Source: a virus. From it: a stretch of DNA of 64,000 nt. Position numbers and translations under genes: made by a program. Under the pieces are notes generated by a model, which saw only the letters and a list, made by a program, of their open reading frames with translations, had not been told where the DNA came from and did not search any database. The stretch lies in IMG/VR virus record IMGVR_UViG_3300050343_000122, positions 49,503 to 113,502 of that record, one strand, 5' to 3'. Shown here one piece after another: positions 43,332 through 63,942 of the stretch (the first letter of the stretch is position 1; each line of letters begins with the position of its first letter).

Positions 43332-43624
43332 GTAAGAAACCATATAAAAGACTCTTAGGTAATCGTGTATATGTACACGTACCTGAAAGAAAGAAAAGTA
43401 AACTTGAAGTAGATGCTAACACTAAAGAAGCTCTACAGAGAGAAATGTTAAAAAAGATGTCTAAGCTTTTAGTTTATGATGTCGGAGATTTAGTAACACA
43501 TTTCAAACCAGGAGATGAGGTCTTAGTAGATCCAGGTAAATTAAAAGATGCACACTTGATACCTCTTACCGATGATCAAGAAGTTTTACTCTTATCTCCA
43601 TTTGATGTAATACATGTTTGGTAA
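43328..43624 (+). CDS. GroES-like co-chaperonin
   Basis: LGNRVYV, V.DVG, KPGDEVL, LL...DV. Confidence 0.65.
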   Translation: MSKKPYKRLLGNRVYVHVPERKKSKLEVDANTKEALQREMLKKMSKLLVYDVGDLVTHFKPGDEVLVDPGKLKDAHLIPLTDDQEVLLLSPFDVIHVW

Positions 43625-45071: not shown

Positions 45072-45074
45072 AAG

Positions 45075-45452
45075 ATGAAAATAGAAGTATCAAACGGAGA
45101 AATATTAGATAAGCTTACTATATTAAATCTAAAGCTAGACTTTATCAATGATCCAAATAAGTTAGCTAATATTAGAAAAGAAGCTGCAGAACTTAATCCT
45201 ATAGCAACTGACATGTTTCAGAATTATGGAGAGGAATTAAGGGACCTTTACGAAGATTTGTCAACAATAAATACCAAACTTTGGTATATAGAAGACTGGA
45301 TAAGAGATTTTGAGAAAGAAGAATCCTTTGGTCAAGACTTTATAGACTTAGCCAGGTCAGTGTATATTACAAATGACAAAAGGAGTGAAGTTAAAAAGAA
45401 AATAAATATACTAACAGATTCAGAATTCATAGAAGAAAAGTCTTATGAATAA
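45075..45452 (+). CDS. DUF6165-like protein
   Basis: S.GE..DKLTIL..K, N..LW.IED.IR, F..LAR.VY.TND.R...K..IN, EEKSY. Confidence 0.75.
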   Translation: MKIEVSNGEILDKLTILNLKLDFINDPNKLANIRKEAAELNPIATDMFQNYGEELRDLYEDLSTINTKLWYIEDWIRDFEKEESFGQDFIDLARSVYITNDKRSEVKKKINILTDSEFIEEKSYE

Positions 45453-47779: not shown

Positions 47780-48070
47780 TTACTCTCCAAGCAAGTTTAT
47801 TCTAAAAACTATCGTTCCGGAAGACTTGATACTCTTAGACAGATCTAACCTAATTTTAAATAGGTTATGTAGTTTAAGTATTTCTTGTAATAAAGACTCT
47901 CCATACCTGGGCATGCTAGGTGCAATTCTAAATATGTAGGACTCACCACTCTTAGTAATTTGCATACTAGAGTATTCATCAATAGAGTCGATCACTCCTT
48001 CTAAGTGAGCAAAGTAAACTTTGTCATTCTCACGCATTATTTCTGGAAAGAATTTTCTGTGTATCTCCAT
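47780..48070 (-). CDS. Hypothetical protein
   Basis: 96-aa ORF. Confidence 0.65.
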   Translation of the reverse strand: MEIHRKFFPEIMRENDKVYFAHLEGVIDSIDEYSSMQITKSGESYIFRIAPSMPRYGESLLQEILKLHNLFKIRLDLSKSIKSSGTIVFRINLLGE

Positions 48071-48128
48071 CGATTAGTATATAAACCCAGGGACACTGGG
48101 TCCCTGAGCTATATAGTTTGTAGTTAAT

Positions 48129-48572
48129 TTACGCACATAGATTTACTGCAGTTACAATTCCGTCAACTGCTACTTGTACATTCCAATCTTGTCCATCTGT
48201 ACTTGCAACTCTGTGATATGCTCCGTCTCCATCATATGGATTTTGTCCAGATGCATCTCTGTAGATTATGTCACCAATAGCTATAGCAGGACCTGCTGCT
48301 AATTTAAGATAGACAGTAGTGTCTAGTGTTAACGCACATGCATCAGCTCCATCAGAGGCTTCAGAAATTTGTCCTCCTGGATATACGATTGCTGCTGTTG
48401 TAGTTGATGTTGTAGTAGGATAACAGCACTCGTATGCTATATCTTGTGGTAATTGCTTCCAATTTCCCACTTTAGGTATCTTGCGTCTTAAGACAAGAGA
48501 ACCAGCTACTACACGTCCAGATCCATCATATCTGACGTACGCATTCAAAGGTCTTTTGTTAATGCTTCCCAT
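48129..48572 (-). CDS. Two-domain putative virion protein with Thr linker
   Basis: AYVRYDGSGR domain, CCYPTTTSTTTAA linker, small beta domain. Confidence 0.7.
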   Translation of the reverse strand: MGSINKRPLNAYVRYDGSGRVVAGSLVLRRKIPKVGNWKQLPQDIAYECCYPTTTSTTTAAIVYPGGQISEASDGADACALTLDTTVYLKLAAGPAIAIGDIIYRDASGQNPYDGDGAYHRVASTDGQDWNVQVAVDGIVTAVNLCA

Positions 48573-48591
48573 TTTAATTTGTTTTAAAGGG

Positions 48592-49611
48592 TTAGTAATT
48601 TAGGTTATATTTAGTTTTTAACTCATGTAATTTCATTGCATAAAAACCAGTGCAATGTTTCATACTTTTCTCGTTGTTTAAAACAACGTCTAAGTGAGGG
48701 TCTGCCATAGGATCTGATCCTGAATGGTACTTCCCTTTGTAAAAACACGGATACCCACCTTGCTCAGTGGATACAATACCAGCATTGTGGTATATAGGGT
48801 GTGTCTTTAGTTTAGTTACTGGGTCTGGTCCCCAGGAGAATCCCATTTCTGGAATCACTTTAACTTCTTTTTCTCTTACCCAAAGGTTCCATAACACGGC
48901 CCACATGTCTGCACACCATGATTGAAATCCAGCATTTTCATCTTTAAAGAACTCTCTGTTTACTTGCTGTAGATAAGTTCTAATCAGTATACAATCATTC
49001 ATAACCTTGCTCCAGAAAGATGCATCTATACCTTTAATTAGATATTGTGCACCGCCAGAATGATCTTTGTTTTCTTCAGCTAATTCTCTGCTTATACCAA
49101 CTACGCTTCCTATCTCTGCTAAGATGTCTCTGTTCTTATACTCTTCAACCTTGTCCGGTAGTACTTGGTTCACCTTACTGTCAAAGTAGAAGGAATTGAT
49201 ATAACTGTTTGTATCTGATACATAACATACATCATCTTCAATGAAATCATCTACGTTAAAGTCTTCTGTCCAAAGGATATCAGAGTCACAATAAAAAACA
49301 GTAGCGTCCTTCATCTCTGGGTTTTCTGACCAGTACTTCCACAATAACCAAGGTCGTAAGACAGGTATGTATATACTAATAAGATTATTAAGAGCACCTT
49401 CTTCATCTTTATAAAAGTTGAATTCAGCTTCTGGATATAGATCAACAATCTTTTTCCACTTTTCGTTAAAAGGTCTAACTTTAGGTGTATAGACTAAAAC
49501 AATTGCGTTGTGCACTTGTCCCATTTCTTTTAAACTTTCCAGCCACATGTGAACTTGCCATGTGTAGTACGTATCATCCGGTTGAGCACAGATGTATTTC
49601 ATTTGTTCCAT
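48592..49611 (-). CDS. GT-A glycosyltransferase resembling peptidyl-Ser galactosyltransferase / Hyp arabinosyltransferase (GT96/GT95)
   Basis: YYTWQ, Y...LRP.L...W, CDSDI (DxD), WCADMWA, H.A; same motif order as recalled for plant SGT1/HPAT. Confidence 0.6.
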   Translation of the reverse strand: MEQMKYICAQPDDTYYTWQVHMWLESLKEMGQVHNAIVLVYTPKVRPFNEKWKKIVDLYPEAEFNFYKDEEGALNNLISIYIPVLRPWLLWKYWSENPEMKDATVFYCDSDILWTEDFNVDDFIEDDVCYVSDTNSYINSFYFDSKVNQVLPDKVEEYKNRDILAEIGSVVGISRELAEENKDHSGGAQYLIKGIDASFWSKVMNDCILIRTYLQQVNREFFKDENAGFQSWCADMWAVLWNLWVREKEVKVIPEMGFSWGPDPVTKLKTHPIYHNAGIVSTEQGGYPCFYKGKYHSGSDPMADPHLDVVLNNEKSMKHCTGFYAMKLHELKTKYNLNY

Positions 49612-49637
49612 TATGTAGTTATTGGTTTTAGTTTATG

Positions 49638-49772
49638 TTACGGTGCAGTGGTAGTGGTAGTTGTTGTGTTAACTTTTCCTGTAACATTGATTAGTCTTTC
49701 TAGCTGCTTGGATATTCTCCAAAGCATTTGATCTGTGTAGCCTGAATTGACAGGTCTTGGAGGTATTGCCAT
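49638..49772 (-). CDS. 44-aa peptide with C-terminal hepta-Thr
   Basis: MAIPPRPVNSGYTDQMLWRISKQLERLINVTGKVNTTTTTTTAP; A-rich leader and promoter upstream. Confidence 0.8.
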   Translation of the reverse strand: MAIPPRPVNSGYTDQMLWRISKQLERLINVTGKVNTTTTTTTAP

Positions 49773-49788
49773 GATGTTTCTTTTTTAA

Positions 49789-49821
49789 CAAATTTATTAA
49801 TATTTTACAAATTATTTCAAC
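49789..49821 (-). promoter_or_regulatory. Promoter for the Thr-peptide/GT operon
   Basis: Minus strand GTTG-N21-TAAATTTG. Confidence 0.55.
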
Positions 49822-49850
49822 ATTTTATCAAATTAAAATAATCACTTTAA

Positions 49851-50315
49851 TTAGAATATCTTATATCTCACTACAATACCATAACCGCCTGGGTTATTAG
49901 GCTGTACAAAAATTCTAGCACCGATATCTATTTTAGATAGGCCCACGGTAACTTCCCCAAATAGTATGGGATTGGTGAGTGTAATTTGATCTGTCTGGAC
50001 ACCTAGATAGCCTCCGAAGTTTAGCTTCTTTTTAGCATCAATGATATCCTGCTGTGTTGATATGTACTCTTCCTGGGACATGATTATCTTATCCTTGTTC
50101 TCCAGGCGTTTAAGAAAGTCTATCTCTTTATTCTGCAAGAGTGATATCCTATCTTCTAACTTTTTAGTTATTAGTTTTAGGTTGTCGTACTTAATTAGAT
50201 CCTTTATTATCTGTCTAGCCTGAGTTTCATTCAGTACTACGACTGGGGTATCTGTCTGTGAAAAACTCTTGAAGCTCACTAATAGGCATAGAATCAACCA
50301 CTTTAATTTGTACAT
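49851..50315 (-). CDS. Putative outer-membrane spanin-like protein
   Basis: Signal peptide (SFS|Q), coiled coil, C-terminal amphipathic strands ending YKIF; overlaps the upstream gene. Confidence 0.5.
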   Translation of the reverse strand: MYKLKWLILCLLVSFKSFSQTDTPVVVLNETQARQIIKDLIKYDNLKLITKKLEDRISLLQNKEIDFLKRLENKDKIIMSQEEYISTQQDIIDAKKKLNFGGYLGVQTDQITLTNPILFGEVTVGLSKIDIGARIFVQPNNPGGYGIVVRYKIF

Positions 50316-50559
50316 ATTCCTTTTCTTTGATGGTTTGTATTTCTTTCACTACAACAGCATCAGCTGTGTTCAGAGAATCTATTTTCTTCTGGAGCTTTCT
50401 GTCCTTCTCTTTATAGATTTCAATCTGATTTTCTATCTTCTCTAGTTTTAACTTATAAAGTTCAACTTCTTTTGAAGATTCATAACTTGTCCATAACAGA
50501 ACAAGAATTATAAAAATGCCAAACCATTGGTTTCTTATAAAATTTATCACTTGCATCAT
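50227..50559 (-). CDS. Putative inner-membrane spanin
   Basis: N-terminal TM helix plus coiled coil, directly after the endolysin candidate. Confidence 0.55.
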   Translation of the reverse strand: MMQVINFIRNQWFGIFIILVLLWTSYESSKEVELYKLKLEKIENQIEIYKEKDRKLQKKIDSLNTADAVVVKEIQTIKEKEYVQIKVVDSMPISELQEFFTDRYPSRSTE

Positions 50560-51164
50560 ACGATATCGTTTGATTCTAGTAAGGTGTATGAAAACTTATT
50601 ACCCCATATATCCGCAGCTTTCTTGCAGATACCTAGGAATTCGTTCCAGTCTTCGTTAGAAGCAATCACTTGACACCCTGCAGACCATTTGTCTACACGC
50701 CAAGATCTACCACCTTTTTTAGCTGTAGCCCTGTGTATGTTTATACCGAACATTCCTTCGTGTACATGTTCTTCTGTAAGATCATACACGTGGTCTTTGT
50801 TCTTGTCTCTATACACCTTAACAGGGGCTCTTTGACATAGAGCATCATATTTACCTTGATGCTTGTTAATCTTGTATGCACCTCTGTATTGCCCAGGCTT
50901 GAGCACAGCTACACCTTTTTCATTAAGAAGGTTGGCCATCCAATGTGTACCTGGATCTGTTGTACTTTTATAACAGTGCATCTTCCATTCACCTTCTTCT
51001 TTATAAGAGATGGTGATGCAATCATCAAAAGCATTTGTCACTCTGTTCTTTGTTGCAGAGTTTCTTACGCCTACAATATTCACATCATAATCACCACCAT
51101 CGAAATACTTGTATCCGCAGGTAATCATTGCATCTTCTATTTGTTGTCTGGTGTAACAAGACAT
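50556..51164 (-). CDS. Putative endolysin with YkuD/L,D-peptidase-like motif
   Basis: GINIH-x16-SAGCQV; lies between holin-like and spanin-like genes. Confidence 0.6.
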   Translation of the reverse strand: MSCYTRQQIEDAMITCGYKYFDGGDYDVNIVGVRNSATKNRVTNAFDDCITISYKEEGEWKMHCYKSTTDPGTHWMANLLNEKGVAVLKPGQYRGAYKINKHQGKYDALCQRAPVKVYRDKNKDHVYDLTEEHVHEGMFGINIHRATAKKGGRSWRVDKWSAGCQVIASNEDWNEFLGICKKAADIWGNKFSYTLLESNDIV

Positions 51165-51183
51165 AGGCTACAATATAATGTTT

Positions 51184-51414
51184 TTAATTCTTATTGCCAA
51201 ATGTTTTTTCTATTCCGGATATACCGAAACATCCGAGCGTAACAATTACAAAGGCATCATAAACAAATTCATTTATAACCAGGTCTCTCCCAATCACACC
51301 ACTGACTAAATCAGCAATCATAACAATACACATAATAAGGAACGAGATAAAGCCTACTATAGACTTCTCATTCCATGTATTGTCATCTTTGAATATGTTC
51401 TTCCAGCTGTTCAT
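51184..51414 (-). CDS. Putative holin (2 TM)
   Basis: Two hydrophobic helices, charged tail, upstream of the endolysin. Confidence 0.55.
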   Translation of the reverse strand: MNSWKNIFKDDNTWNEKSIVGFISFLIMCIVMIADLVSGVIGRDLVINEFVYDAFVIVTLGCFGISGIEKTFGNKN

Positions 51415-51522
51415 TTAACACTGTTCTAAATGCGAACCATCACAGTTTCCTTCAGGATCTTGTGTGTGTCCGCATGTGCATGTTCCAACTTTACCTGTTA
51501 ATATATCTTCTATTGTTTTCAT
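51415..51522 (-). CDS. 35-aa CDGSH iron-sulfur peptide
   Basis: MKTIEDILTGKVGTCTCGHTQDPEGNCDGSHLEQC; ATGA overlap upstream, stop abuts the next ATG. Confidence 0.8.
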   Translation of the reverse strand: MKTIEDILTGKVGTCTCGHTQDPEGNCDGSHLEQC

Positions 51523-51713
51523 ATTTTTGATTTTATTGCAGACTTCAATAAGTCCCAATTTTTATGTGCAAAAATTCCGAAGGCTACGCCAGCCCAAATC
51601 TTAAAGCCGAATATCCAAAGACCAATACCGACCAATAGGCCAGCAGCTCCTTCAATACCGTTTCCGATTATCCAATCTTTTATTGTGTTTACTACTTTTT
51701 TTATTTTACTCAT
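51519..51713 (-). CDS. Small Gly-rich membrane protein
   Basis: 64 aa with a hydrophobic hairpin. Confidence 0.65.
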   Translation of the reverse strand: MSKIKKVVNTIKDWIIGNGIEGAAGLLVGIGLWIFGFKIWAGVAFGIFAHKNWDLLKSAIKSKI

Positions 51714-51994
51714 CTTTCTATTGTTAGTTCGTAAATACGTTGTTCTAGCTGCTCCACTTTCTTAAGAATAAGTTCTACATCCCCTTGGGTATCCATTATA
51801 GCTGCTCGAAGCAGTTCATCTTTAAGATCATACTCCACTTGAGTTATGATGGGTTTTGGTTCCTGCATAGCAACTGCTATTTCAGACTTTAAAGATATGT
51901 ACACTGTTGTTAGTGATACTGCAAATGATATAAGGATTCCTATTGTTTTGAAATCTGTTGTGACCTTAGTGGTTTCACTTATGTTTTTACTCAT
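51710..51994 (-). CDS. Single-TM coiled-coil protein (holin/antiholin-like)
   Basis: Start refined to MSKNISE; TM helix then coiled coil. Confidence 0.6.
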   Translation of the reverse strand: MSKNISETTKVTTDFKTIGILISFAVSLTTVYISLKSEIAVAMQEPKPIITQVEYDLKDELLRAAIMDTQGDVELILKKVEQLEQRIYELTIER

Positions 51995-52108
51995 GATTTT
52001 CCTTTTTAGGGATAAGAGGTTAATGATACAATTGGATGTTTGTACCCTTCTTAGAATTATTTGAATTGAAGTTGGTTTATAACGCCTGTAGTATGTGTAG
52101 CGTATAAA

Positions 52109-52139
52109 CAAATATACAAAAGGTATCTCAATCACCAAA
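52109..52139 (-). promoter_or_regulatory. Promoter of the lysis cassette
   Basis: Minus strand TTTG-N19-TATATTTG. Confidence 0.75.
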
Positions 52140-52155
52140 CATTTGATTCAAATAA

Positions 52156-52187
52156 TTTGCTTAATATAGCATAAAACTTTACTTTTG
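52156..52187 (+). promoter_or_regulatory. Promoter of the multidomain glycosyltransferase
   Basis: TTTG-N20-TACTTTTG, 17 nt before the ATG. Confidence 0.75.
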
Positions 52188-52204: not shown

Positions 52205-55200
52205 ATGCCACATAGTTACGACTTCTTTAAACAACAAGTAAAGGATTGGATCATACAACATGTTCCTAAACATAAAAGAATTCTAGATGTTGGACCTGGT
52301 ATAGGTACATATTCTAAACTAATTAGAGATCATGGATACAGAATCGATGCTGTAGAAATCTTTGCACCATATATAGAAAAGTATGACTTGATCAGTCAGT
52401 ATGATAATGTATTTGTAGGTGATATCTGTAAGTTTGACTTCAAAGATTATGACTTTATTATCTTAGGAGATGTTCTAGAACACTTACATGTAGAAGACGC
52501 TGTTGATCTATACAATAGGATGATAGAACAAGATAAAGAAGTATTAGTTGCGGTACCATGGGAAATGGAACAGGGTGAACATGAAGGTAATATTTATGAA
52601 ACACACCATCAAACAGATCTTACTCCACCGGTATTAAGAAGCAGATATCCAAAATTGAAACTATTATTTAAGAATGAATATTATGGTTACTATTATAAAT
52701 TAAATCGTAAGTGGGAAAAAGCATATGTGCTCTATGCAAATTCTGCATACTACGATACAGTATGTGCAGCTGTTAAATCAATTAAAGCTTTTAGTAACAT
52801 ACCGATAATCGTTTACTTACTAAATGATGAAAGAACTGTACCAGGTGCTATTGTAGAGAATTGGAAGCATGAGGAGTTAAGTGTAGAACAAAGTGAGTAC
52901 ATAGATAGAAACAACAGTGATATATATAAGTTACTTATACAAAGACCATCTATAGTTAAGCACGCACTAAACAAGTACGCAAAGACAATAGCATATATTG
53001 ATTCAGACAGTGTAGTAACTTCATATATAGATAACATATTTAACTACATGCCTGAAGATTCTTCTTATCCCTATTTTACAAAAGGTATATATGACTACCT
53101 GTTTATAAATGGTAGAGGTGGTGTAGAAACTAGAGAGGAGTTACATAAAAGTTTAGAACATCCAGCTTGTGAATTATTTGGTGTAGACCAGTCTGTTCGA
53201 TCGAAATATCATCAAACAGGATTTTTTACAGCAGGACAATCATGTTTTGATTTCCTTGATGAGTGGGAGTGGATGTGTAACCATCCTAAGGTTTTAAGTA
53301 ATCCACAGTACTATGCTCCTTACCATGAAGAAACTATAGCTAACGTTCTTTTGTGGAAGAATGATGTACATGAGGGTTTACCTTATATGTATATAAACTA
53401 CACAGGACATATAGATGTTGATGACTTACCTTTTACTGGTGAGGATAATTATTTATCAGAGTGGGTGAGATTACCTAAGGTTAAAGAAGAACTACTTGTA
53501 CTACATGGAGAGAAGAGACCTGAGTACATGTTAGAGGTTCTAAACTCTAGAAAGAAAAAGATATTATTTTTAGCTCCACACCTGTCTACAGGAGGTATGC
53601 CTGCATTCTTACTTAAGAGAATAGTTGCATTGAAAGAAACCTATGAAATATATGTAGTGGAGTTTCAGAATTATAGTAATGAGTATGTAGTTCAGAAGAA
53701 CAAAATAAAAGAGCTGGCAGATCACTTCTATACATTAGAAGAAGATAAGCACGAACTAATGAGAATCATTAGAGGGAATCGTATTGATTTAGTACACATA
53801 GATGAAATGTCTGAACACATGGGTGATGACACTGTAATAAAGGACTTATATTGTAACTGTAGATCTTGGAGAATAATAGAAACATGTCACAACATATCAT
53901 TTAAACCAGAAGAAAAAGTTTATAATCCTGATGCTTATGCATTTTGCACACCTTATCATATGTCTACATTTAAAGATACTCCAACACCTATTAAAAAGGT
54001 ATTGGAATTTCCTATAGATGAGTTGTCTGCAAATAAACTAAGTGCTATGACACAGCTAGGTTTAGATCCTATCAAGAAGCATGTGGTTAATATAGGGTTA
54101 TGGACACGTGGTAAAAACCAAGGAGAAGGTGTAGAGTTAGCTAGACAGTTACCAGGAGTACATTTTCACTTTGTTGGTAATCAAGCTGTTAACTTTAAAG
54201 ACTATTGGGAACCAATCATGGAAGATATTCCTAACAATGTATTTGTTCACGGTGAAAGAAATGATACACACTTATGGTTAGAAGCAGCTGATGTTTTTAT
54301 GTTCAATTCTACATGGGAGTGCAACCCTCTTGTACTTAGAGAGGCTATTAGTTATGGGCTACCTATACTTGCTAGGAACTTACCGCAGTATGAAGACATG
54401 TTCACTTCGTATATCACTGATTTAGATCCTATTAAAATGAAAGATCAGTTAAAGACTTTATTAAAAGATGCGTGTAATTACATTGTACCTACCGACAATA
54501 CATTACAAGACTTTGCCTCTAATCATGTTGAACTGTATACAGAAACATTAAGTACACCTAAATTTAAAAACTCTTCTCCATCAGATTTTACTATCTATCG
54601 TGACTTTGCTCTAGGACCCTATATAGATATACGAGGAAATAGCAAAAGTGAATTCAAAGTGGAAATATATGATGAGGAGAAACTGGTATATAACAGTGTA
54701 CTGGGAGTAAATAACTGGTGCAAACTTGACAAAAGCTACTATGTTAATTGGAGAACTTCAATATATAAAGATGATCTACTTATATTAGATGACAAGTTAA
54801 ATCTAGAAGGACGAAGAGTTTATATTGCATTTGAAAGTTCTTCTCTCGGAGATACAATTGCATGGATTCCTTATGCTTTAGAGTTTCAAAAGAAACACAA
54901 CTGTAATGTAGTAGTTAGTACATTTAAAAACTTTTTATTTGAAGATGTGTATCCTGAGCTTGAGTTTATAAAACCTGGAGAAAGTCCTGGAGATATCTAT
55001 GCTAGGTATAACATAGGCTGGTTCTATGATTCTAATAAAGAACCTGTTCTTCCTAATACAATACCTCTGCAACAAGCTGCATCTAATATATTAGGATTGG
55101 AGTATGAAGAAATTGTGCCGAGAATAAAAAAAGATTTTGGGAACCCTTGTGGAATGAAAGATAATTATCAAGTTCCAGGAAAGTATGTAACTATAGCTAC

Positions 55201-55654
55201 TAACTCTACAGCTGGTTGTAAATTTTGGACTAGAGAAGGATGGCAGGAAGTTATAGACTTTCTCTACTCTCAAGGATATAAAGTAATTAATACATCTATA
55301 GAAGATAACCCTTTCAATAATTGTGAGAAAATAGTAGACACTAATATAGAGTATACAATTGATTGTATAAGACAGAGTGAGTTCTTTATAGGACTATCTA
55401 GTGGGCTTAGTTGGTTAGCGTGGGCTTTAGGTAAACCTGTTGTAATGATATCAAACTTTACAGAAGCTAATCATGAGTTTTCATGTATACGAGTAACAAA
55501 TACCAATGTCTGCCATGGTTGTTGGAACGATCCACAATACACATTTGATAAAGGTGATTGGAATTGGTGTCCTGTACACAAGGGTACTGATAGACAATTT
55601 GAATGTCACAAATCTATTACTCCAAAAGATGTTATAAATGTATTACCTGTTTAA
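52205..55654 (+). CDS. Four-domain enzyme: SAM methyltransferase + GT-A + GT4-like GT-B + Aah/TibC-like O-heptosyltransferase
   Basis: LDVGPGIG and GDVLEH; YIDSD; HLSTGGMP, KNQ, E.NP.V.REA; SLGDTIAW.PY, FFIGLSSGLSWLAW, CHGCWND, WCP.HK...QFEC. Confidence 0.85.
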   Translation: MPHSYDFFKQQVKDWIIQHVPKHKRILDVGPGIGTYSKLIRDHGYRIDAVEIFAPYIEKYDLISQYDNVFVGDICKFDFKDYDFIILGDVLEHLHVEDAVDLYNRMIEQDKEVLVAVPWEMEQGEHEGNIYETHHQTDLTPPVLRSRYPKLKLLFKNEYYGYYYKLNRKWEKAYVLYANSAYYDTVCAAVKSIKAFSNIPIIVYLLNDERTVPGAIVENWKHEELSVEQSEYIDRNNSDIYKLLIQRPSIVKHALNKYAKTIAYIDSDSVVTSYIDNIFNYMPEDSSYPYFTKGIYDYLFINGRGGVETREELHKSLEHPACELFGVDQSVRSKYHQTGFFTAGQSCFDFLDEWEWMCNHPKVLSNPQYYAPYHEETIANVLLWKNDVHEGLPYMYINYTGHIDVDDLPFTGEDNYLSEWVRLPKVKEELLVLHGEKRPEYMLEVLNSRKKKILFLAPHLSTGGMPAFLLKRIVALKETYEIYVVEFQNYSNEYVVQKNKIKELADHFYTLEEDKHELMRIIRGNRIDLVHIDEMSEHMGDDTVIKDLYCNCRSWRIIETCHNISFKPEEKVYNPDAYAFCTPYHMSTFKDTPTPIKKVLEFPIDELSANKLSAMTQLGLDPIKKHVVNIGLWTRGKNQGEGVELARQLPGVHFHFVGNQAVNFKDYWEPIMEDIPNNVFVHGERNDTHLWLEAADVFMFNSTWECNPLVLREAISYGLPILARNLPQYEDMFTSYITDLDPIKMKDQLKTLLKDACNYIVPTDNTLQDFASNHVELYTETLSTPKFKNSSPSDFTIYRDFALGPYIDIRGNSKSEFKVEIYDEEKLVYNSVLGVNNWCKLDKSYYVNWRTSIYKDDLLILDDKLNLEGRRVYIAFESSSLGDTIAWIPYALEFQKKHNCNVVVSTFKNFLFEDVYPELEFIKPGESPGDIYARYNIGWFYDSNKEPVLPNTIPLQQAASNILGLEYEEIVPRIKKDFGNPCGMKDNYQVPGKYVTIATNSTAGCKFWTREGWQEVIDFLYSQGYKVINTSIEDNPFNNCEKIVDTNIEYTIDCIRQSEFFIGLSSGLSWLAWALGKPVVMISNFTEANHEFSCIRVTNTNVCHGCWNDPQYTFDKGDWNWCPVHKGTDRQFECHKSITPKDVINVLPV

Positions 55655-58600
55655 GTATAAAAACAAGGAATAGCTCTAGATGTCTTTATATCATTAGTAA
55701 ACGTGGCTGTATAAGAACCGTCTTTTGTATACTCAAAGTTTTGCCCAGATCTTCTAAATCTATATGTACCTGTTGATAAATTAGCAGGTGAAGTAAGTGA
55801 AGTGTTACTATATAACTGAGTTACATATTTAGGCATCCACTCTTTAGCATATACTGTTGTAGGCATAGCAGATCCACAACCTGCTCCAACAAGAGAAATT
55901 TTATATTCATAGAATGCTGCAGTAGGTGCTGCATCATCAGTGTCTAGACCAAAGACATCATTAGTTGTCTGTGGAGTAGTACATGATGAATAGGCAAGAA
56001 TAGGCCCATACAATGCACCCATTGTTATTCTATATTCTCCTGGATTATCAAATATAAAATATTGAGTTCCAATTTGGCCAGTTCCTGTAGGGAAATTTGC
56101 TGCATTAAATACACGAAGTAATCCATTACCACTAGTGTTTTCTGATGTCATACCACCGTAAACAGCATTCCATGTAGCTCCTGGTCTACATATGTCTCCA
56201 AAAATATCTACAGCTCTATTCCAATTTTGAGTATTGTTTGCTCTATACATTACAGCACAGTTTTGATCTATGTACTGTTGAGCACCTCCTGTTTGTCCTT
56301 TCTCCATACTAAATGCAACATAGAAAGATCCTTGGGTTAGTCTTCCTACACCTGAATCTTGAAGTAATTCTCTACCAAATGTAAACTGCTGATATTGATT
56401 AGGTGGGTTGTTAACTGTACATTTTAAATCAGATCTAGAACCATTATCAGATGTAGTTAAAGAACTTCCATATATATAAGCATTAGGTATACCATAATTA
56501 TTAGCCCCATCTAGATTTGTTAAAGAGTCTGCAAAGTATATTCTTTGTCCATCTCCATCAAAGTTACCATTACTACTATATGTAAATCTTGTACCTGGAC
56601 TTGGATTTAAAACTGTCGTACTAGTGGTTGTAGTTGTAGGATCAGGACACTCAGTAATTCTTATCTTCATATCACCATTATCGTGATATAATCCATATAA
56701 TGGTATCCCAGCTTGAGCAGCTGCACAGTCATTAGCATAGTTATGATGTTCACCAACTTCAGGTAATATAACACAACTCTCTACATTTGATACTGCACCC
56801 ACATTTGGAATTCCTCCTATGGTTCCTCTCTTTGTAACAATGATAGCATTTCTTCGAGCATTAGCAAAGTTACCATAACCTGCACCTAACATAAATGTAG
56901 CAGGCATATAGTTAGAAGTATAGTTTACATTATCTCTATCATTATATGAGCCTACTAAAACTATATCAGATGATGTAGTAGTAGTATCGGAAGCTCCTTG
57001 TGTACTGTTCGGATTTACTTTTAGGTTTCTTCCTATTCCGACTGATTCCGATTTAAAAATATCTATAAGTCTTCCTAGTCCTCCGGAATTGGAAACCGCT
57101 GAAGAAGTGGTGGCTCCTATAACAACATCTCTACCAATTGCAAAATTATTATTACTACTAGAATTTGAAATCTCATTACTTGTTCCTGAAGTTATATGAT
57201 TAGTTCCTTGTATGCTATTACTGGTACCTACTACTAGAGATCTAGTGGTTGTAGAATTCACAGTATTGGTTCTTCCTGATATAATAGTCTCGCTAGCACC
57301 TCCAGTATTTCCATATCCACTAATTATATTATGTGAACCACCAACTGCGTTGTTGTAACCTCCAATAATATTACCAGCGTTGTTGAGTGATGCAGTTGTG
57401 GTTGTTTTATTTAGTTCTCCTACTACTAAACTATTATTTACATTTAGTCCTCCCCAACCACCAGCAGAAGTTCTACCATTTCTTCTTCCTCCAATGATAT
57501 TATTAATTCCATTTATAAAGTAGAAGTTAGTTCCCACCCCTGGAACGATCTCATCTAAAGCATGTAAATCTCCTACCACTAAACTATGTTCCATGTTTAT
57601 GTTGGACTCGTTTGATGATATTATATTATAATCTGAATATATAGTTACTCCAGAATTTTCTGTATCACCTACGAAGTTCTTGAACCCATTGATGATTCCA
57701 CCTTCCATACCAGTTCCAAGACCCACAAAGTTTTGTCTACCTCCGACTGTAACATAGCTTACATCTCCATTAATACCGTTGTCTCTACCACCTATAAGGT
57801 TAGCAAATCCCATTGCAGTAGTATTAGAGGCACCAAAGTCATTACCGTATCCATAAATAAGAGTACCGTAACTATTAGAATTACTACCACTCTTTTTAAT
57901 AGTGTTATTAAATCCTCCAATACTAACAGTGTTAACATTTGATATGACGTTACCAGCACCCCACATTATATTGTTATTACCGTCTAATTTGTTATTACTA
58001 CCACTAACAAGAGCATTAGCTGCATCTCCATCTGTTGTATGAGCAATTCCTCCAATCATAGATCTTACGATCTTATGAGTTATAATGTTGTTTTGTCCTG
58101 ATAGAACAGTATTTATAATTGTACCAGTGTTAGGACTTGTTTTATTAACAGTGTTGGTTGTACCCACTACAAGTGAGGCTGTGTTTACAAAGTTAGTTTG
58201 TGTACCATTTACCTCATTACCTTGTCCTACAACAAGCATTTTATCTCCTGTAAGATTGTTGTTAAATCCAACAATACCTAAGTTACTTGATGTTGCATCT
58301 CCTACTACATTTTCACTACCACAGATCAATGCTGATCCGTCATACGTTGTAGCATATATATTAGATACATATGTAGTTGAATCTTCGTAAGGAGACACTT
58401 CAAGTCTTGGTGTAATTCGCGTTACGTAATGTGTACCGTTACCTGGTTGTGTGATTCTTATACCCTCTGTTATATATGTAAAGTTAGTAGTAGTATAAGT
58501 TGCACCTATCTTTATTATATCATTATCTAAAACTTCTAATGCAAAATTAGTGTTAGTTAAAGCAGATGCTTGATCAGGGTACAAATAACTTTCACCGACT

Positions 58601-61600
58601 ACATGTAATCTATAGTTAGGAATCTTTGTACCTACACCTAAATAACTATTGTCATTATCCCACCAGTGATTATTATTTCCAGCTATTACTGTTGTTACAG
58701 CATCATCATCACCAGTCCAGAATGCAACTTGTCCATCTGCAATACCAGAACCAGAAACTTGAAGGGCAGGAGTAGAGCCAGATGTACCATCAGCACCACT
58801 TGAGCCACTTGAACCACTTGAACCAGATGTACCAGAGGTACCTGATGTACCAGAGGTACCAGAAGTTCCTGAAGTTCCGTTATTTGTAAATATAAATGCA
58901 CACAGATCACCATCTACAATCACCCCACTACTGTTGTTTTCAGATGCAGTGGTAGTACAACTAAGAATCCTTGTATTGAGACCATAAGGACTATTACCAG
59001 TAACATTAAGTGTTATAAACTCTTCTACATCTGCAAGGTTTGTAATTCTTAATTGTGCATCTCCTCCTGCACTTTGAATATCTTCCAGTAGGTTAAGAAT
59101 AGTTGCTCCATTTGAATCTGTCGTACTAACAGTTAAATATGTTATATTACCAGCTAGACTATTGCTTGATCCTAATTGAAACTCACCTGAAGCTTGACTA
59201 TTTGGTGAACCTGTAATGTATCCATCAAACTCTGAAGTAAATAAGAAACCGGTAGATATACCTGAGGTACCAGGACTACCTGGACTACCACTATTACCAG
59301 AGGTTCCACTACTACCAGAGGTTCCACTTGTACCAGATGTACCACTTGTACCGCTCGTACCAGATGTTCCTGTTGTACCGCTAGTACCAGACGTACCATC
59401 ATTACCAGAAGAACCACTTGTTCCTGAAGTTCCATCTATCCCAGTAGTACCACTACTACCAGAGGTACCGGACGTACCAGATGTGCCATCATCACCACTG
59501 GATCCAGATGTACCTGACGTTCCAGTATTACCTGAAGTTCCTGACGTTCCAGTTGTTCCTGATGTACCACTTGTACCATCGTCACCAGAACTACCTGATG
59601 TACCAGCTGTTCCTGATGTACCAGTGGTACCACTCGTTCCGCTTGTTCCATTTTCTCCATCTTCTCCTGAAGTTCCACTTGTACCTGACGATCCAGCTGT
59701 TCCACTTGTACCACTAGTACCACTATCTCCACTGCTACCAGATGTTCCTGAGGTTCCATCTTCACCAGTTGTACCAGAGGTACCACTAGTTCCACTTGTA
59801 CCATCATCACCACTCGTGCCTGATGTTCCATCATCACCACTAGTACCTGACGTACCGGTTGTTCCTGAAGAGCCACTACTTCCAGCTGTACCAGAAGAGC
59901 CACTACTTCCATCACCACCAGAGCTTCCACTTGTTCCACTTGTACCTGATGAGCCACTTTCTCCACTAGTTCCAGAAGTTCCACTGGTACCACTTGTACC
60001 AGATGTACCATCTTCACCTGTTGTTCCGCTAGTTCCTGATGTTCCAGTTGTTCCAGAACTTCCACTAGTTCCGGATGTACCAGAGGTACCAGTTTCTCCA
60101 CTTGTTCCACTGGTTCCAGATGTACCTGATGTACCACTCGATCCACTATTACCAGAGCTTCCTGAAGTACCAGAGGTTCCGGATGTACCAGAACTACCGT
60201 CAACACCAGGATCTCCTTTATCACCTGTAGTTGCAAAGCACATCAATACATCATCACCATTGCTAAATATTACTCCTGTTCCTTGTGATGATGCTACAGC
60301 ACTTATATTTATTGTCCACCAACCAGAATTATTAGTTAAATCTGATATAGCAAATAATATAAAGTCAGCAGTGTTGAATTTTTCTGATATTCTAACATGT
60401 CCTTTTACAGCTGAAGTTGAACTGTCAATTGCTTGTAAGAAGGAATTAATAGAGTCTCCATTATCATCTAAGACGTCTATATACATAGCACTAGCACCTG
60501 CTTGGTCTTGGTTATTACTTAACCTTACCTTACCTGTTCCTGGATCACTAGAGCCAGTTGAGATATCAAATGTATAGTCAAAACATGCACCACCAAAGTT
60601 ACCATCTGAACCAGATGTACCTGCACTACCAGAACTACCTGACGTTCCAGATGTTCCACTACTACCACTGTCTCCACTAGAACCACTAGTTCCAGATGTA
60701 CCGCTGGTTCCTGAACTACCAGAGTCTCCTGAAGATCCACTACTTCCTGATGTACCACTTGTACCTGAGCTTCCACTGTTTCCACTAGATCCGCTAGATC
60801 CACTTGTACCGTCTATACCACTTGTACCTGTAGTTCCTGCAGTACCACTAGTCCCTGAAGTACCATCCTCTCCACTAGAGCCACTACTTCCTGCAGTACC
60901 ACTACTTCCACTTGTACCATCTTCTCCGCTAGAACCACTTGTTCCAGATGTTCCACTAGTTCCGTCTATACCACTAGACCCTGAAGTACCTGTTGTTCCA
61001 GATGTACCACTAGTTCCATCTTCACCGGTTGTTCCTGATGTTCCTGATGATCCACTAGTTCCACTAGTTCCATTTTCTCCATCAGTTCCTGAACTACCAC
61101 TAGTACCGGATGTTCCACTAGTACCACTAGTTGCACTGGTTCCTGAAGTTCCTGTTGTACCTGATGTTCCATTACTACCATCTTCACCACTTGTTCCACT
61201 TGTACCGGTAGTACCGCTAGTTCCTGATGTACCATCTTCTCCAGATGTTCCACTCGTGCCACTTGTAGCAGATGTTCCAGAGGTACCACTGCTTCCGTCT
61301 GCTGCAGATGTACCAGAGCTACCTGAACTTCCGGATGTACCAGAAGTTCCAGAGGTACCAGATGTTCCACTGCTACCAGAACATAATCCATTAATCCCTA
61401 CAGATCCACTAGCGTCAAATCTAGGTAAATCTTTAGAACACACATCGATTGCATTTCCTTCGGATATAGTAATAGATTGAGATACGTTTGCACAGTCTGT
61501 ATATGATGCATCACAATCACCTCCACCATTTGGACATGATAGGTTATAGCTTATACAGCTACCACCAGATGAACCGGAAGTACCACTTGTACCACCTGAT

Positions 61601-63528
61601 CCACTAGTACCACTAGTGCCAGAGGTACCAGAAGTAGCAGATGTACCTGATGTTCCATCAATAGCTGATGTTCCACTAGTTCCAGAAGTTGCGGATGTAC
61701 CAGATGTACCAGAGGTTCCAGTAGTACCGGACGTTCCTGTAGTACCTGATGTTGATCCTACAGACACTCCCACTTGTACTGTATTAAATACTACGGAAGG
61801 TGCAGCAGGTGCTGGGTAAGGAGCAGTTTTACTTGCAAGGGCATCTATTTGAACTGTTGGATTATCAGATGCAAAGTATAGTTCTAAATAATCTTGCTCT
61901 TCTAACTCTACTATATAAGATATGTATGGACTGTTAATCGCATCTTGGTGATGTATAGAATGTACTCTATCCTTTCTTATAAAATCTGTACCGTTCTTTC
62001 TTAACCATATGTCAACACTAGTGTGACCTCCACCACCTTGAGAACCTGTTCGCTCAAATTGTATAGAGTATCCCACTTCATATATACCAGCATGTGGATA
62101 TCTTACCTGCTGATTGAAGTCTAAAATAATACCATTAGAAAGTTCTGTAGTACTGAACGTTACTGCTGTTGGTACATTTGTACCATTAACTGGTTGTATT
62201 GTATTATCTGAAAAACTAGCATACCAGTTTGCTATTGCAGCACCAGATGATCCATCTATACCGCTTGTTCCTGCAGAGCCTGATGTACCTGTTGTACCTG
62301 ATGTCCCTGTTGTACCAGCTGTACCAGAACTACCGCTTGTTCCAGAAGTACCTGGTGTACCACTAGTACCTGTTGTTCCACTGGTACCAGATGTTCCACT
62401 TGTTCCTCGTGTTCCAGATGTCCCACTTGTTCCTGTAGTTCCACTGGTTCCTGTACTACCTGAGCTTCCAGAAGTTCCAGATGTGCCACTTGATCCAGTG
62501 TCACCACTTGATCCACTAGTTCCTGTTGTACCAGATGTCCCAGCTGTGCCAGAACTACCAGATGTACCAGTCGTACCACTTGTCCCAGTCGTACCACTTG
62601 TACCACTTGTGCCTGTTGTACCACTTGTGCCAGATGTACCTGTTGTTCCACTAGTACCGCTGGTACCAGAAGATCCATCTCCACCAGTTGCTCCATCAAG
62701 ATTGATACACCATGAAGTATATGTACCAGATCCTACTACCTTAAAAGGTGGGGTGAAACATAACTGTCCTGTTACTGGATCATAGGATACTACATCGCAT
62801 TCTTGGTAATTATTTACATCATGAGCAATAACAATAGATTGACCTGCAGTGTATGCAAGTCCAGTGTCTACAGTTAAACATTCATTAATAGTATTACCTA
62901 AAGTAAATGATGTTCCTGTAATACATGTTTTATACTTATCTCCTTGATCTCCAGACGTTCCACTAGTTCCAGACGTTGCACTAGTTCCACTAGAGCCTGA
63001 TGTACCACTCGTACCAGTTGTACCACTTGTACCGGTGGTCCCTGAAGTTCCAGATGTGCCACTAGTACCTGATGTGCCACTAGTACCTGATGTACCAGAA
63101 GTACCAACCGAACCAGATGAACCGGATGAACCACTAGTTCCACTTGTTCCACTTGTCCCAGTGGTACCAGATGTACCTGTAGTTCCTGAAGTTCCAGCAG
63201 TTGCTGAGGTACCGGAAGTACCTGTTGTTCCTGAGGTACCAGATGTACCACTAGTGCCGGAAGTCCCAGCTGTTCCAGATGTAGCAGAAGTACCAGATGA
63301 TCCTGATGTGCCTGAAGTACCGGAAGTACCTGATGTACCACTGGTACCATCAAGTCCAGCTCCAGAACATAGAAGTTTATCTATATTCTTAAGAGCGTCT
63401 TCTACAGTCATATTTGTTCTGACTCCAGAGCATACTAAATTTGGCCCCTCATAAAATACACAAGCTGCACTTAGTGTAATAGGGCAAGGATCAGCTGCAC
63501 AAACTAGGTTGTTACTACTTTTACTCAT
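55651..63528 (-). CDS. Giant fibre/adhesin: (Gly-Thr-Ser)n collagen-like blocks, C1q/BclA-like domain, beta-solenoid region
   Basis: 2625 aa; six G-X-Y blocks separated by globular domains; G..N repeats in the C-terminal third; CPDPTTTTTSTT linker. Confidence 0.8.
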   Translation of the reverse strand: MSKSSNNLVCAADPCPITLSAACVFYEGPNLVCSGVRTNMTVEDALKNIDKLLCSGAGLDGTSGTSGTSGTSGTSGSSGTSATSGTAGTSGTSGTSGTSGTTGTSGTSATAGTSGTTGTSGTTGTSGTSGTSGSSGSSGSVGTSGTSGTSGTSGTSGTSGTSGTTGTSGTTGTSGTSGSSGTSATSGTSGTSGDQGDKYKTCITGTSFTLGNTINECLTVDTGLAYTAGQSIVIAHDVNNYQECDVVSYDPVTGQLCFTPPFKVVGSGTYTSWCINLDGATGGDGSSGTSGTSGTTGTSGTSGTTGTSGTSGTTGTSGTTGTSGSSGTAGTSGTTGTSGSSGDTGSSGTSGTSGSSGSTGTSGTTGTSGTSGTRGTSGTSGTSGTTGTSGTPGTSGTSGSSGTAGTTGTSGTTGTSGSAGTSGIDGSSGAAIANWYASFSDNTIQPVNGTNVPTAVTFSTTELSNGIILDFNQQVRYPHAGIYEVGYSIQFERTGSQGGGGHTSVDIWLRKNGTDFIRKDRVHSIHHQDAINSPYISYIVELEEQDYLELYFASDNPTVQIDALASKTAPYPAPAAPSVVFNTVQVGVSVGSTSGTTGTSGTTGTSGTSGTSATSGTSGTSAIDGTSGTSATSGTSGTSGTSGSGGTSGTSGSSGGSCISYNLSCPNGGGDCDASYTDCANVSQSITISEGNAIDVCSKDLPRFDASGSVGINGLCSGSSGTSGTSGTSGTSGSSGSSGTSAADGSSGTSGTSATSGTSGTSGEDGTSGTSGTTGTSGTSGEDGSNGTSGTTGTSGTSATSGTSGTSGTSGSSGTDGENGTSGTSGSSGTSGTTGEDGTSGTSGTTGTSGSSGIDGTSGTSGTSGSSGEDGTSGSSGTAGSSGSSGEDGTSGTSGTAGTTGTSGIDGTSGSSGSSGNSGSSGTSGTSGSSGSSGDSGSSGTSGTSGTSGSSGDSGSSGTSGTSGSSGSAGTSGSDGNFGGACFDYTFDISTGSSDPGTGKVRLSNNQDQAGASAMYIDVLDDNGDSINSFLQAIDSSTSAVKGHVRISEKFNTADFILFAISDLTNNSGWWTINISAVASSQGTGVIFSNGDDVLMCFATTGDKGDPGVDGSSGTSGTSGTSGSSGNSGSSGTSGTSGTSGTSGETGTSGTSGTSGSSGTTGTSGTSGTTGEDGTSGTSGTSGTSGTSGESGSSGTSGTSGSSGGDGSSGSSGTAGSSGSSGTTGTSGTSGDDGTSGTSGDDGTSGTSGTSGTTGEDGTSGTSGSSGDSGTSGTSGTAGSSGTSGTSGEDGENGTSGTSGTTGTSGTAGTSGSSGDDGTSGTSGTTGTSGTSGNTGTSGTSGSSGDDGTSGTSGTSGSSGTTGIDGTSGTSGSSGNDGTSGTSGTTGTSGTSGTSGTSGTSGTSGSSGTSGNSGSPGSPGTSGISTGFLFTSEFDGYITGSPNSQASGEFQLGSSNSLAGNITYLTVSTTDSNGATILNLLEDIQSAGGDAQLRITNLADVEEFITLNVTGNSPYGLNTRILSCTTTASENNSSGVIVDGDLCAFIFTNNGTSGTSGTSGTSGTSGTSGSSGSSGSSGADGTSGSTPALQVSGSGIADGQVAFWTGDDDAVTTVIAGNNNHWWDNDNSYLGVGTKIPNYRLHVVGESYLYPDQASALTNTNFALEVLDNDIIKIGATYTTTNFTYITEGIRITQPGNGTHYVTRITPRLEVSPYEDSTTYVSNIYATTYDGSALICGSENVVGDATSSNLGIVGFNNNLTGDKMLVVGQGNEVNGTQTNFVNTASLVVGTTNTVNKTSPNTGTIINTVLSGQNNIITHKIVRSMIGGIAHTTDGDAANALVSGSNNKLDGNNNIMWGAGNVISNVNTVSIGGFNNTIKKSGSNSNSYGTLIYGYGNDFGASNTTAMGFANLIGGRDNGINGDVSYVTVGGRQNFVGLGTGMEGGIINGFKNFVGDTENSGVTIYSDYNIISSNESNINMEHSLVVGDLHALDEIVPGVGTNFYFINGINNIIGGRRNGRTSAGGWGGLNVNNSLVVGELNKTTTTASLNNAGNIIGGYNNAVGGSHNIISGYGNTGGASETIISGRTNTVNSTTTRSLVVGTSNSIQGTNHITSGTSNEISNSSSNNNFAIGRDVVIGATTSSAVSNSGGLGRLIDIFKSESVGIGRNLKVNPNSTQGASDTTTTSSDIVLVGSYNDRDNVNYTSNYMPATFMLGAGYGNFANARRNAIIVTKRGTIGGIPNVGAVSNVESCVILPEVGEHHNYANDCAAAQAGIPLYGLYHDNGDMKIRITECPDPTTTTTSTTVLNPSPGTRFTYSSNGNFDGDGQRIYFADSLTNLDGANNYGIPNAYIYGSSLTTSDNGSRSDLKCTVNNPPNQYQQFTFGRELLQDSGVGRLTQGSFYVAFSMEKGQTGGAQQYIDQNCAVMYRANNTQNWNRAVDIFGDICRPGATWNAVYGGMTSENTSGNGLLRVFNAANFPTGTGQIGTQYFIFDNPGEYRITMGALYGPILAYSSCTTPQTTNDVFGLDTDDAAPTAAFYEYKISLVGAGCGSAMPTTVYAKEWMPKYVTQLYSNTSLTSPANLSTGTYRFRRSGQNFEYTKDGSYTATFTNDIKTSRAIPCFYT
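58775..63345 (-). repeat. Six blocks of degenerate 9-bp repeats encoding GTS/GSS/GTT/GED
   Basis: Approximate blocks 63345-62950, 62680-62240, 61750-61560, 61380-60600, 60210-59260, 58880-58775. Confidence 0.95.
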
Positions 63529-63546
63529 CTGAATGGATATATGTTA

Positions 63547-63942
63547 TTAATGTACTATCTTAAGAAAGTCTCCTGTACGGTATACGTCACCCACAGTTAA
63601 GCCAGCAAACACAGCAGCTGAATTATTAGGATACTCAGGAGCACCTGTTATAGGTACAGTTAAGAGTACTTCCCAATCAGACGCTGTTCCAGCAAGATTA
63701 GCAATGTAGACTTTCCCACTTGTTGCACTTTGATCAATGTGTATTTTTCCTACATAAGGTGCAGGACTTACAGGCGTAGATGTGTTAAACGAAGGAACCA
63801 AGTTCAAATTAATGTTACCTAGTATCGTTTGTAGGTCATCGCCAGGATTTATAACAGCATTACCTAAGTATCTACCATTATAAATAATACATTCTGCATT
63901 TTGATACACAGCACATGTGGGACAAATTTCAGCGGTTCTCAT
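63547..63942 (-). CDS. Short fibre-family protein sharing modules with the giant gene
   Basis: C..Y.G..L N-module and YPNNSAA..AGL..G.VY..G..LKI C-module. Confidence 0.7.
   Translation of the reverse strand: MRTAEICPTCAVYQNAECIIYNGRYLGNAVINPGDDLQTILGNINLNLVPSFNTSTPVSPAPYVGKIHIDQSATSGKVYIANLAGTASDWEVLLTVPITGAPEYPNNSAAVFAGLTVGDVYRTGDFLKIVH

Follow-up and report, generated by a model that had tools for sequence, protein, structure and literature searches.

The closest described relatives of the locus reported here are the TibC-TibA and Aah-AIDA-I systems of Escherichia coli (TIGR04414; PDB 4RAP/4RB4; PMC4358343), in which the gene of a stand-alone glycosyltransferase (GT) adjoins that of a surface fibre, which is long, repetitive, and rich in Ser and is the presumed target of hyper-glycosylation in the cytoplasm. 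In TibC, Asp110 is the catalytic base, Thr226 and Lys230 are ligands of the beta-phosphate, and Trp305 contacts the sugar; four Cys residues (339, 342, 358, and 370) form an iron finger (1Fe-0S) that also binds the substrate (PMC4358343). Arg286 contacts the N1 atom of adenine, which is said to explain the specificity for ADP, and the R286A mutation abolishes or largely diminishes the activity (PMC4358343). The tip residues of a beta-hairpin thumb (Phe265 and Val266) build a dodecamer and are needed for activity on TibA, and tip mutants are inactive dimers; the enzyme modifies Ser, not Thr (PMC4358343). We analysed a 64,000-nucleotide stretch of viral DNA (the window), the final 64 kb of the complete 113,502-bp record IMGVR_UViG_3300050343_000122, which has a terminal repeat of 461 bp. 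The window encodes a four-domain enzyme (P0001), whose C-terminal domain is of the TibC/Aah type (BAHT), and, adjacent to it, a collagen-like protein (P0002). Judged from their sequences, P0001 is likely to be a phage multi-domain protein O-glycosyltransferase with the Gly-Thr-Ser fibre P0002 as its main acceptor.

Glycosylated collagen-like proteins are known from Bacillus (BclA, on Thr of the GPT repeats), from the cuticle of Riftia (Thr-O-Gal at the Y position), and from mimivirus. They resemble P0002 in having G-X-Y repeats poor in hydroxyproline, and they bear O-glycans on Thr or Ser; in the Riftia cuticle collagen, the sugar stabilises the triple helix. However, the repeat of P0002 has Thr at X and Ser at Y and is nearly free of Pro. 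To our knowledge, the enzymes of these three systems also differ from P0001, none of them being a BAHT, and none of the modified proteins is a bacteriophage fibre. Mycobacteriophage glycosyltransferases modify the C-termini of their own capsid and tail-tube subunits by O-glycosylation (Freeman et al. 2023, PMC10527164, as cited in PMC12619734). Within what that citing account describes, phage-encoded glycosyltransferases act on structural proteins of the same phage, which is the likeness to the present locus; by description, the two differ in that capsid and tail-tube C-termini are modified there, while a TibC-type enzyme and a collagen-like fibre are involved here. Our literature search found no report that connects BAHT enzymes to phages or to collagen-like proteins. 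This agrees with a preliminary description of the locus, made from the sequence alone, which knew of no phage system of such a design, although, going by the same account, O-glycosylation of phage virions in general has a precedent in the mycobacteriophages.

P0001 stands alone on the plus strand, and every neighbouring open reading frame (ORF) of at least 80 amino acids (aa), at 47780-52138 and at 55651-63942, is on the minus strand. The gene is preceded by a Bacteroidota-type promoter motif of its own, and its stop codon overlaps that of the convergent P0002 gene in a TTAA that was read directly in the sequence (Table 1). The preliminary description had pointed out this isolated orientation, the promoter, and the overlap, together with the motifs SLGDTIAW, FIGLSSGLSWLAW, and CHGCWN...WCP...FEC, and we recovered all of them. 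Its division of P0001 into methyltransferase, GT-A, GT4, and Aah/TibC domains was likewise borne out, by Pfam, by AlphaFold and Foldseek, by TIGR04414, and by the match to the TibC fold.

The BAHT domain scored 279.5 bits against TIGR04414 (cut-off 200) but only 25 bits against the lipopolysaccharide (LPS) heptosyltransferase I model TIGR02193. When the whole genome was searched with TIGR04414, the score was 281 bits, and none of the control genomes exceeded the cut-off. A sequence search related the domain to the TibC structure 4RAP with E = 2.3e-54, and its identity to members of the TibC/Aah family is ~32-37 %. The AlphaFold model of the domain has a mean confidence (pLDDT) of 87.9 and eight N-terminal strands, and it reproduces the fold of the TibC protomer, in which an N-terminal flattened beta-barrel is combined with a GT-B catalytic domain. 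It superimposes on 4RAP_A with a TM-score of 0.86 (root-mean-square deviation 3.0, E = 4e-32), whereas the comparison with WaaC, WaaF, and other GT9 enzymes gave TM-scores of 0.36-0.50. The LPS heptosyltransferases WaaC and WaaF retain a distant GT-B kinship, visible as a Pfam Glyco_transf_9 match on P0001 (E = 1.5e-7), but the iron finger and the beta-barrel are absent from them. As had been proposed, the domain groups with Aah and TibC rather than with the LPS enzymes, and on its sequence and predicted structure it is a true but altered relative of TibC/Aah, not an LPS GT9.

For a comparison of residues, 70 phage-type sequences were aligned with three plasmid BAHTs that adjoin genes of AIDA-I-type autotransporters. 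Asp883, Thr1002, Lys1006, and Trp1070 of P0001 correspond to Asp110, Thr226, Lys230, and Trp305 of TibC and are invariant in all 70 phage-type sequences. The same is true of Cys1103, Cys1106, Cys1122, and Cys1134, which occupy the positions of Cys339, Cys342, Cys358, and Cys370 and form a putative iron finger. P0001 therefore shares with TibC the family assignment by hidden Markov model (HMM) and fold, the beta-barrel, the GT-B core, the catalytic Asp, the Thr, Lys, and Trp contacts, and the four-Cys finger.

The three domains that precede the BAHT domain are of other enzyme families. The methyltransferase and GT4 domains were recognised by Pfam, and Glycos_transf_1 matched aa 625-737 with 42.5 bits (gathering cut-off 26.4). 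No Pfam match was found for aa 166-460, and this domain was assigned from its AlphaFold model (pLDDT 89.7; alignment of 26 relatives). The best Foldseek matches of the model were GT6 ABO transferases, alpha-3-galactosyltransferase (alpha-3-GalT), and the catalytic (GT24) domain of UGGT, with E ~2e-7, TM ~0.5, and probability 1.00; these neighbours are retaining GT-A enzymes. The two Asp residues of the D-x-D motif (D101 and D103 of the domain) are invariant in the alignment of relatives. A search for transmembrane segments in P0001 found none (maximum 19-residue hydropathy 1.39), and the protein is predicted to be soluble and cytoplasmic.

P0002 contains 307 G-X-Y triplets, with 11 runs of at least six triplets. 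The X position is occupied by Thr in 204 and by Ser in 61 cases, and the Y position by Ser in 224 and by Thr in 35. The 524 Ser and Thr residues in the runs, against four Pro, confirm the earlier impression of a repeat with several hundred Ser/Thr in strict register and almost no Pro. Pfam Collagen (PF01391) matched P0002 in 14 stretches (E = 7.8e-116), and tail-fibre families of PHROG matched it as well, chiefly via the repeat. At the DNA level, the repeats are degenerate (60-80 % matches), so the Gly-Thr-Ser repeat is maintained at the protein level. When the sequence is followed past the terminal repeat, P0002 is the final gene of a minus-strand block of ~70 kb, which opens with terminase, portal, and capsid and goes on to giant proteins. 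From its sequence and position, P0002 appears to be a collagen-like fibre of the structural module, for which a triple helix and a place in the virion are predicted. For the inner globular domain (aa 432-594), a BclA_C/C1q-like identity is only weakly hinted at by a BclA_C match below threshold (E = 0.063).

Partner fibres in other BAHT loci have nothing in common with P0002 beyond its collagen tracts and small inner domains. The C-terminal 1039 aa had no relatives in the other BAHT loci fetched (L001-L086) and no Pfam match, and the Atlas leads to a YadA-head or beta-roll were weak (0.83). These three results argue against a beta-helix-like acceptor of the TibA kind. A YadA-head-like beta-roll as the conserved acceptor, considered by analogy with the beta-helical TibA, was consequently rejected, since the region is not shared among the partner fibres.

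Relatives of the BAHT domain were found in 263 IMG/VR contigs and 4220 protein clusters. Among named or deposited phages, a protein-level search gave four records, and a DNA-level search gave two megaphage records only. Loci were counted among the best 80 IMG/VR BAHT loci, and a collagen-like ORF was defined by at least 15 triplets. The fusion of GT4 and BAHT is the invariant core of the enzyme (78 of the 80 loci), to which a GT-A domain is added in 47 loci and a methyltransferase in 16, one of the latter lying beside the enzyme gene rather than being fused to it. A collagen-like ORF is present in 51/80 loci, and all 51 of these ORFs are Ser/Thr-rich. In loci with at least 6 kb of flank, the collagen-like ORF lies downstream of the enzyme gene and convergent with it in 36/49 and upstream in 1/59, so that the layout of the window is repeated. 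When the sequences were clustered at 70 % identity, the linkage was seen in ~19 of 22 informative clusters. Despite altered gene orders, the pairing is also kept in Microcystis phage Mel-JY01, a 735-kb phage, and three contigs of metagenome-assembled genomes (MAGs). The smallest BAHT-bearing phage records are of ~60 kb and the largest is of 735 kb, which points to more than one phage lineage.

In a reciprocal test, IMG/VR was searched with the inner globular domain of the fibre. All 15 close relatives (at least 45 % identity) are in Ser/Thr-rich collagen-like genes, and a BAHT gene is present in 12 of these 15 loci; in the remaining three, the contig end or a fibre gene filling the flank hides the site of the BAHT gene. 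Among 65 distant relatives, 12 are in collagen-like genes, all of them Ser/Thr-poor, and a BAHT gene is missing from every one of the 65 loci. When all ORFs of these 65 BAHT-less loci were examined, a collagen-like gene was found in 16 and a Ser/Thr-rich one in none. The Ser/Thr fraction of the collagen-like repeats is 0.66-0.93 with a BAHT gene and 0.13-0.41 without. Ser/Thr-rich collagen-like genes thus occur in 51/80 loci with the enzyme versus 0/65 loci without it; therefore, BAHT genes go with how rich the repeat is in Ser/Thr rather than with collagen-likeness as such. The linkage of the enzyme domain to Gly-Thr-Ser genes across phages, which had been put forward from the window, is thereby found from both directions. 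Because many unrelated phages pair a TibC-type enzyme with a Ser/Thr-rich fibre, the most likely reading is that the phage coats its own fibre with sugar.

The record of Mel-JY01 (L001, PP395634.1) carries an unannotated gene at 635-3052 (+) for an 805-aa Gly-Thr-Ser collagen-like protein, where a minus-strand hypothetical protein (739-2298) is annotated. This gene is located 1.7 kb upstream of that of a 1226-aa GT4...TibC-like fusion labelled 'methyltransferase FkbM'. We also considered BAHT as a normal host gene. TIGR04414 exceeded its cut-off in 0/400 other genomes from the phylum of a Saprospirales MAG, and a scan with a single query sequence found a BAHT relative in only three MAG contigs; this reading was rejected on these grounds.

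We infer the role of the fibre as acceptor, the residues modified, the order in which the domains act, the sugar used, and the advantage gained by the phage. P0001 would act in the cytoplasm on newly made fibre chains, and its BAHT domain would place the first sugar on hydroxyl groups of the repeat. By analogy with TibC, the likeliest sites would be the ~285 Ser residues, mostly at the Y position, because TibC modifies Ser, not Thr. Asp883 would serve as the base, with the nucleotide-sugar bound through Thr1002, Lys1006, and Trp1070. Extension of the glycan would then fall to the fused GT4 and GT-A domains and its modification to the methyltransferase. The glycosylated chains would assemble into the virion fibre, where their sugars may lend stability, hydration, or shielding to a triple helix nearly free of proline.

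Several observations weigh against this assignment, and the first of them concern the enzyme. In P0001, a deletion of 10 aa falls exactly at the beta-hairpin thumb, which is shortened in all 70 phage-type sequences; the region has 31-32 residues in 69 of them and 37 in that of Mel-JY01, compared with 41 in BAHTs. The position of Arg286 is taken by Thr1051 in P0001, by Thr in 63/70 phage-type sequences, and by Arg in only 2/70, whereas it is Arg in all three plasmid BAHTs. In TibC, both the thumb tip and Arg286 are needed; therefore, the chemistry of the phage BAHT may differ from that of TibC. By this alignment, the phage enzymes are a distinct thumbless branch of the family, which probably does not form the dodecameric ring. 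With the thumb lost and Arg286 replaced, both the ring assembly and ADP-heptose as the donor are doubtful; heptose is possible, but the donor-site residues give no support to it. GmhA was absent from this genome in a SIS_2/GmhA search and from 35 of 36 BAHT-bearing phage records.

Other points concern the acceptor. The linked loci are phylogenetically related, and the linkage counts are therefore not independent events. A clade of nine BAHT sequences, eight of whose loci have full flanks, has no collagen-like gene (0/8) and adjoins a Thr/Pro mucin-like gene instead. In this clade, a gene for a TPTxTPT mucin-like protein of ~1000-1100 aa lies just upstream, and an FkbM methyltransferase gene lies downstream. 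Moreover, poly-Thr/Ser tracts are present on nine other late proteins of the phage, so the collagen repeat is not necessarily the sole or principal acceptor. Long TPTxTPT (Thr/Pro) arrays with Cys-rich domains were observed in locus L028 at 2954-6157 (-) and likewise in L029, L030, L035, and L052.

P0001 agrees with TibC in the HMM score, the fold, the catalytic residues, and the iron finger, but not in the thumb, in Arg286, or in an autotransporter partner; therefore, it is an altered BAHT and not a plain member of the family. It is borne by a phage, its BAHT domain is fused to GT4 with or without GT-A and methyltransferase domains while TibC and Aah are stand-alone enzymes, and its branch has no thumb and mostly Thr in place of Arg286. 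Its partner is a collagen-like Gly-Thr-Ser protein and not a beta-helical autotransporter, and a search of the phage genome for the Autotransporter domain (PF03797) found none.

Ten minus-strand late ORFs, including P0002, carry mucin-like poly-Thr or (Ser-Thr)n tracts, often after Cys-Pro. These tracts are candidate O-glycosylation sites on many proteins of the virion module, and the phage may glycosylate several of its virion proteins. The true acceptors could accordingly be such linkers, with runs such as CPNPTTTTTSTSS and TTTTTSSSTSTSTSTS, while the Gly-Thr-Ser tracts are unmodified or only incidentally modified. The mucin-like neighbour of the collagen-free BAHT clade fits this explanation, as do further glycosyltransferases in the genome, a GT2 at 43618-44421 and a TOD1/MUCI70-like protein at 44418-45071. 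However, the neighbour that is conserved across phages is the Ser/Thr-rich G-X-Y gene (51/80 versus 0/65), and the tags consist mostly of Thr, whereas TibC modifies Ser (PMC4358343). The explanation is also only partly exclusive, as both kinds of tract could be acceptors. We regard it as unlikely.

The GT9, GT4, GT-A, and methyltransferase domains of P0001 are typical of the synthesis of envelope polysaccharides, and the gene has its own promoter and is transcribed opposite to the late block. It could thus act during infection to alter glycans of the host envelope, such as those of the LPS core, the capsule, or the S-layer, perhaps to exclude superinfecting phages or to aid release, and its adjacency to the fibre gene would be inherited synteny without functional meaning. 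We consider this very improbable: the C-terminal domain is of the TibC type and has two features absent from LPS enzymes, the iron finger and the N-terminal beta-barrel; the linkage to a Ser/Thr-rich fibre outlasts changes of gene order in unrelated phages of 60 kb to 735 kb; BAHT presence follows the Ser/Thr content of the collagen repeat; and P0001 is without a membrane segment. The phage domain might instead have lost its transferase activity and act on the collagen-like protein as a chaperone that binds the fibre or as a scaffold for its assembly. This would suit the loss of the thumb and the replacement of Arg286, mutation of either of which impairs TibC, and the substrate binding by the TibC iron finger. 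It is hardly credible, however, as all 70 sequences keep the catalytic Asp, the phosphate-ligand Thr and Lys, and the Trp that contacts the sugar, which is unexpected for a dead enzyme, and the domain is constantly fused to other glycosyltransferases.

O-glycosylation of the fibre by P0001 can be extended to a bolder version, which we offer tentatively and would not call probable. The thumbless branch, widespread in phages and their own, would form no ring, would not read adenine, and would use another nucleotide-sugar. Together with the fused GT4, GT-A, and methyltransferase domains, it would build methylated oligosaccharides on Ser of proline-free Gly-Thr-Ser triple helices, in which the sugars would replace the stabilising role of hydroxyproline. 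This would amount to glyco-collagen of a new class and to a novel way of glycosylating virions.

A phage-encoded heptose pathway was sought in the genome and rejected. Neither SIS_2/GmhA nor NTP_transferase was found, and a nucleotidyltransferase and a short-chain dehydrogenase/reductase (SDR) epimerase are sub-threshold for any specific pathway. The former, a 147-aa protein of the cytidylyl/adenylyl-transferase family (window 24718-25161, +), scored 68 bits against rfaE_dom_II (cut-off 181) and is equally like glycerol-3-phosphate cytidylyltransferase. The latter, an SDR sugar epimerase/dehydratase (window 29900-30772, +), is GalE-like with 149 bits, below the cut-off. Both genes sit within the replication module, and their products could supply an activated sugar or serve DNA modification. 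The one BAHT-bearing record among 36 with a bona fide gmhA (430182-430640, 251 bits) is LR756504.1, a 636-kb phage, where the gene is ~27 kb from a stand-alone BAHT gene; no collagen-like gene is present within 12 kb of that BAHT locus.

The GT2 (Pfam 42.5 bits) and the TOD1/MUCI70-like glycosyltransferase-like protein (21.8 bits, barely above the cut-off) are encoded in a row with a DUF6165 protein at window 43618-45452 (+), and the three may constitute a second glycosylation module. A 339-aa protein that matches phrog_4417 (function unknown) is encoded at 48592-49611 (-), between two small genes (48129-48572 and 49638-49772) that end in poly-Thr. Its reading as a peptide glycosyltransferase was rejected because Pfam and PDB sequence searches gave no support.

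The large terminase, portal, and major head protein of the phage are similar to their equivalents in Cellulophaga phages phi17:2 and phi4:1, Flavobacterium phages, and Leptolyngbya phage Lbo-JY46; their likeness to those in crAss-like phages is more distant. The GC content is ~35 %. The window would be expected to contain 3.2 copies of the Bacteroidota-type promoter motif TTTG-N17-23-TAnnTTTG but has 10, a number that none of 100 shuffled sequences reached. Therefore, from the relatives of these three proteins, the GC content, and the motif, the host is likely to belong to Bacteroidota. Around the terminal repeat and before the window (482-35259 of the whole genome, C1, minus strand), the fibre gene is followed by giant ORFs of 1615, 4176, 918, 1255, 1042, and 2261 aa, a run reminiscent of the virion-associated giant proteins in crAss-like phages.

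Table 1. Coordinates of the features discussed (window numbering unless the genome, C1, is named).
Feature	Position	Strand	Basis or remark
Bacteroidota-type promoter motif TTTG-N20-TAcTTTTG	52156..52187	+	17 nt before the P0001 ATG
P0001, four-domain enzyme gene, 1149 aa	52205..55654	+	ORF; Pfam; TIGR04414
Class I S-adenosylmethionine-dependent methyltransferase domain, aa 1-165	52205..52699	+	Pfam Methyltransf_23 E = 2.9e-8, Methyltransf_11 E = 3.4e-6; PDB 3cc8 E = 1.6e-7
GT-A fold glycosyltransferase domain, aa 166-460	52700..53584	+	AlphaFold and Foldseek; DxD motif AYIDSDSV
GT4-type GT-B glycosyltransferase domain, aa ~461-796	53585..54592	+	Pfam Glycos_transf_1 E = 6.4e-11, Glyco_trans_1_4 E = 7.6e-10
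BAHT (TibC/Aah-type) domain, aa 797-1149	54593..55651	+	TIGR04414; 4RAP; residue columns; AlphaFold
TTAA overlap of convergent stops	55651..55654	both	TAA on plus strand, 55652-55654; TTA (minus-strand TAA), 55651-55653
P0002, collagen-like fibre gene, 2625 aa	55651..63528	-	ORF; Pfam; triplet count
Gly-Thr-Ser collagen-like tract 1, aa 58-183	62980..63357	-	
Gly-Thr-Ser collagen-like tract 2, aa 279-431	62236..62694	-	
Globular domain, aa 432-594	61747..62235	-	tblastn matches in 6 BAHT loci; 88 relatives in IMG/VR
Collagen-like tracts with short interruptions, aa 595-981	60586..61746	-	
Longest collagen-like tract, 108 triplets, aa 1102-1425	59254..60225	-	
Non-collagen C-terminal 1039 aa, Asn/Gly/Ser-rich, beta-roll-like repeats and distal domain	55654..58770	-	
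Poly-Thr tag CPDPTTTTTSTT within the C-terminal part of P0002, aa 2298-2310	~56599-56637	-	
Poly-Thr/Ser-bearing ORFs or tracts	827-1813, 2593-3732, 48129-48572, 49638-49772, 56599-56637; genome C1 28474-49551	-	

If glycosylation of the fibre by P0001 holds, the automatic name 'autotransporter O-heptosyltransferase' that thousands of metagenomic proteins bear would be misleading as to the substrate and perhaps the sugar. P0001 would also offer a compact, single-polypeptide glycan assembly line for the glyco-engineering of Ser-rich repeats. For the fibres themselves, it would explain how long collagen-like proteins can be stable without proline or hydroxyproline. Enzymes of a family previously known solely in connection with pathogen adhesins would be at work in phages, where the combination of BAHT and fibre appears to be common, judging from the 263 contigs, the 4220 clusters, and the range of phage sizes given above. 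Glycosylation of this fibre would represent a second mechanism of bacteriophage virion glycosylation, distinct from that of the mycobacteriophages.

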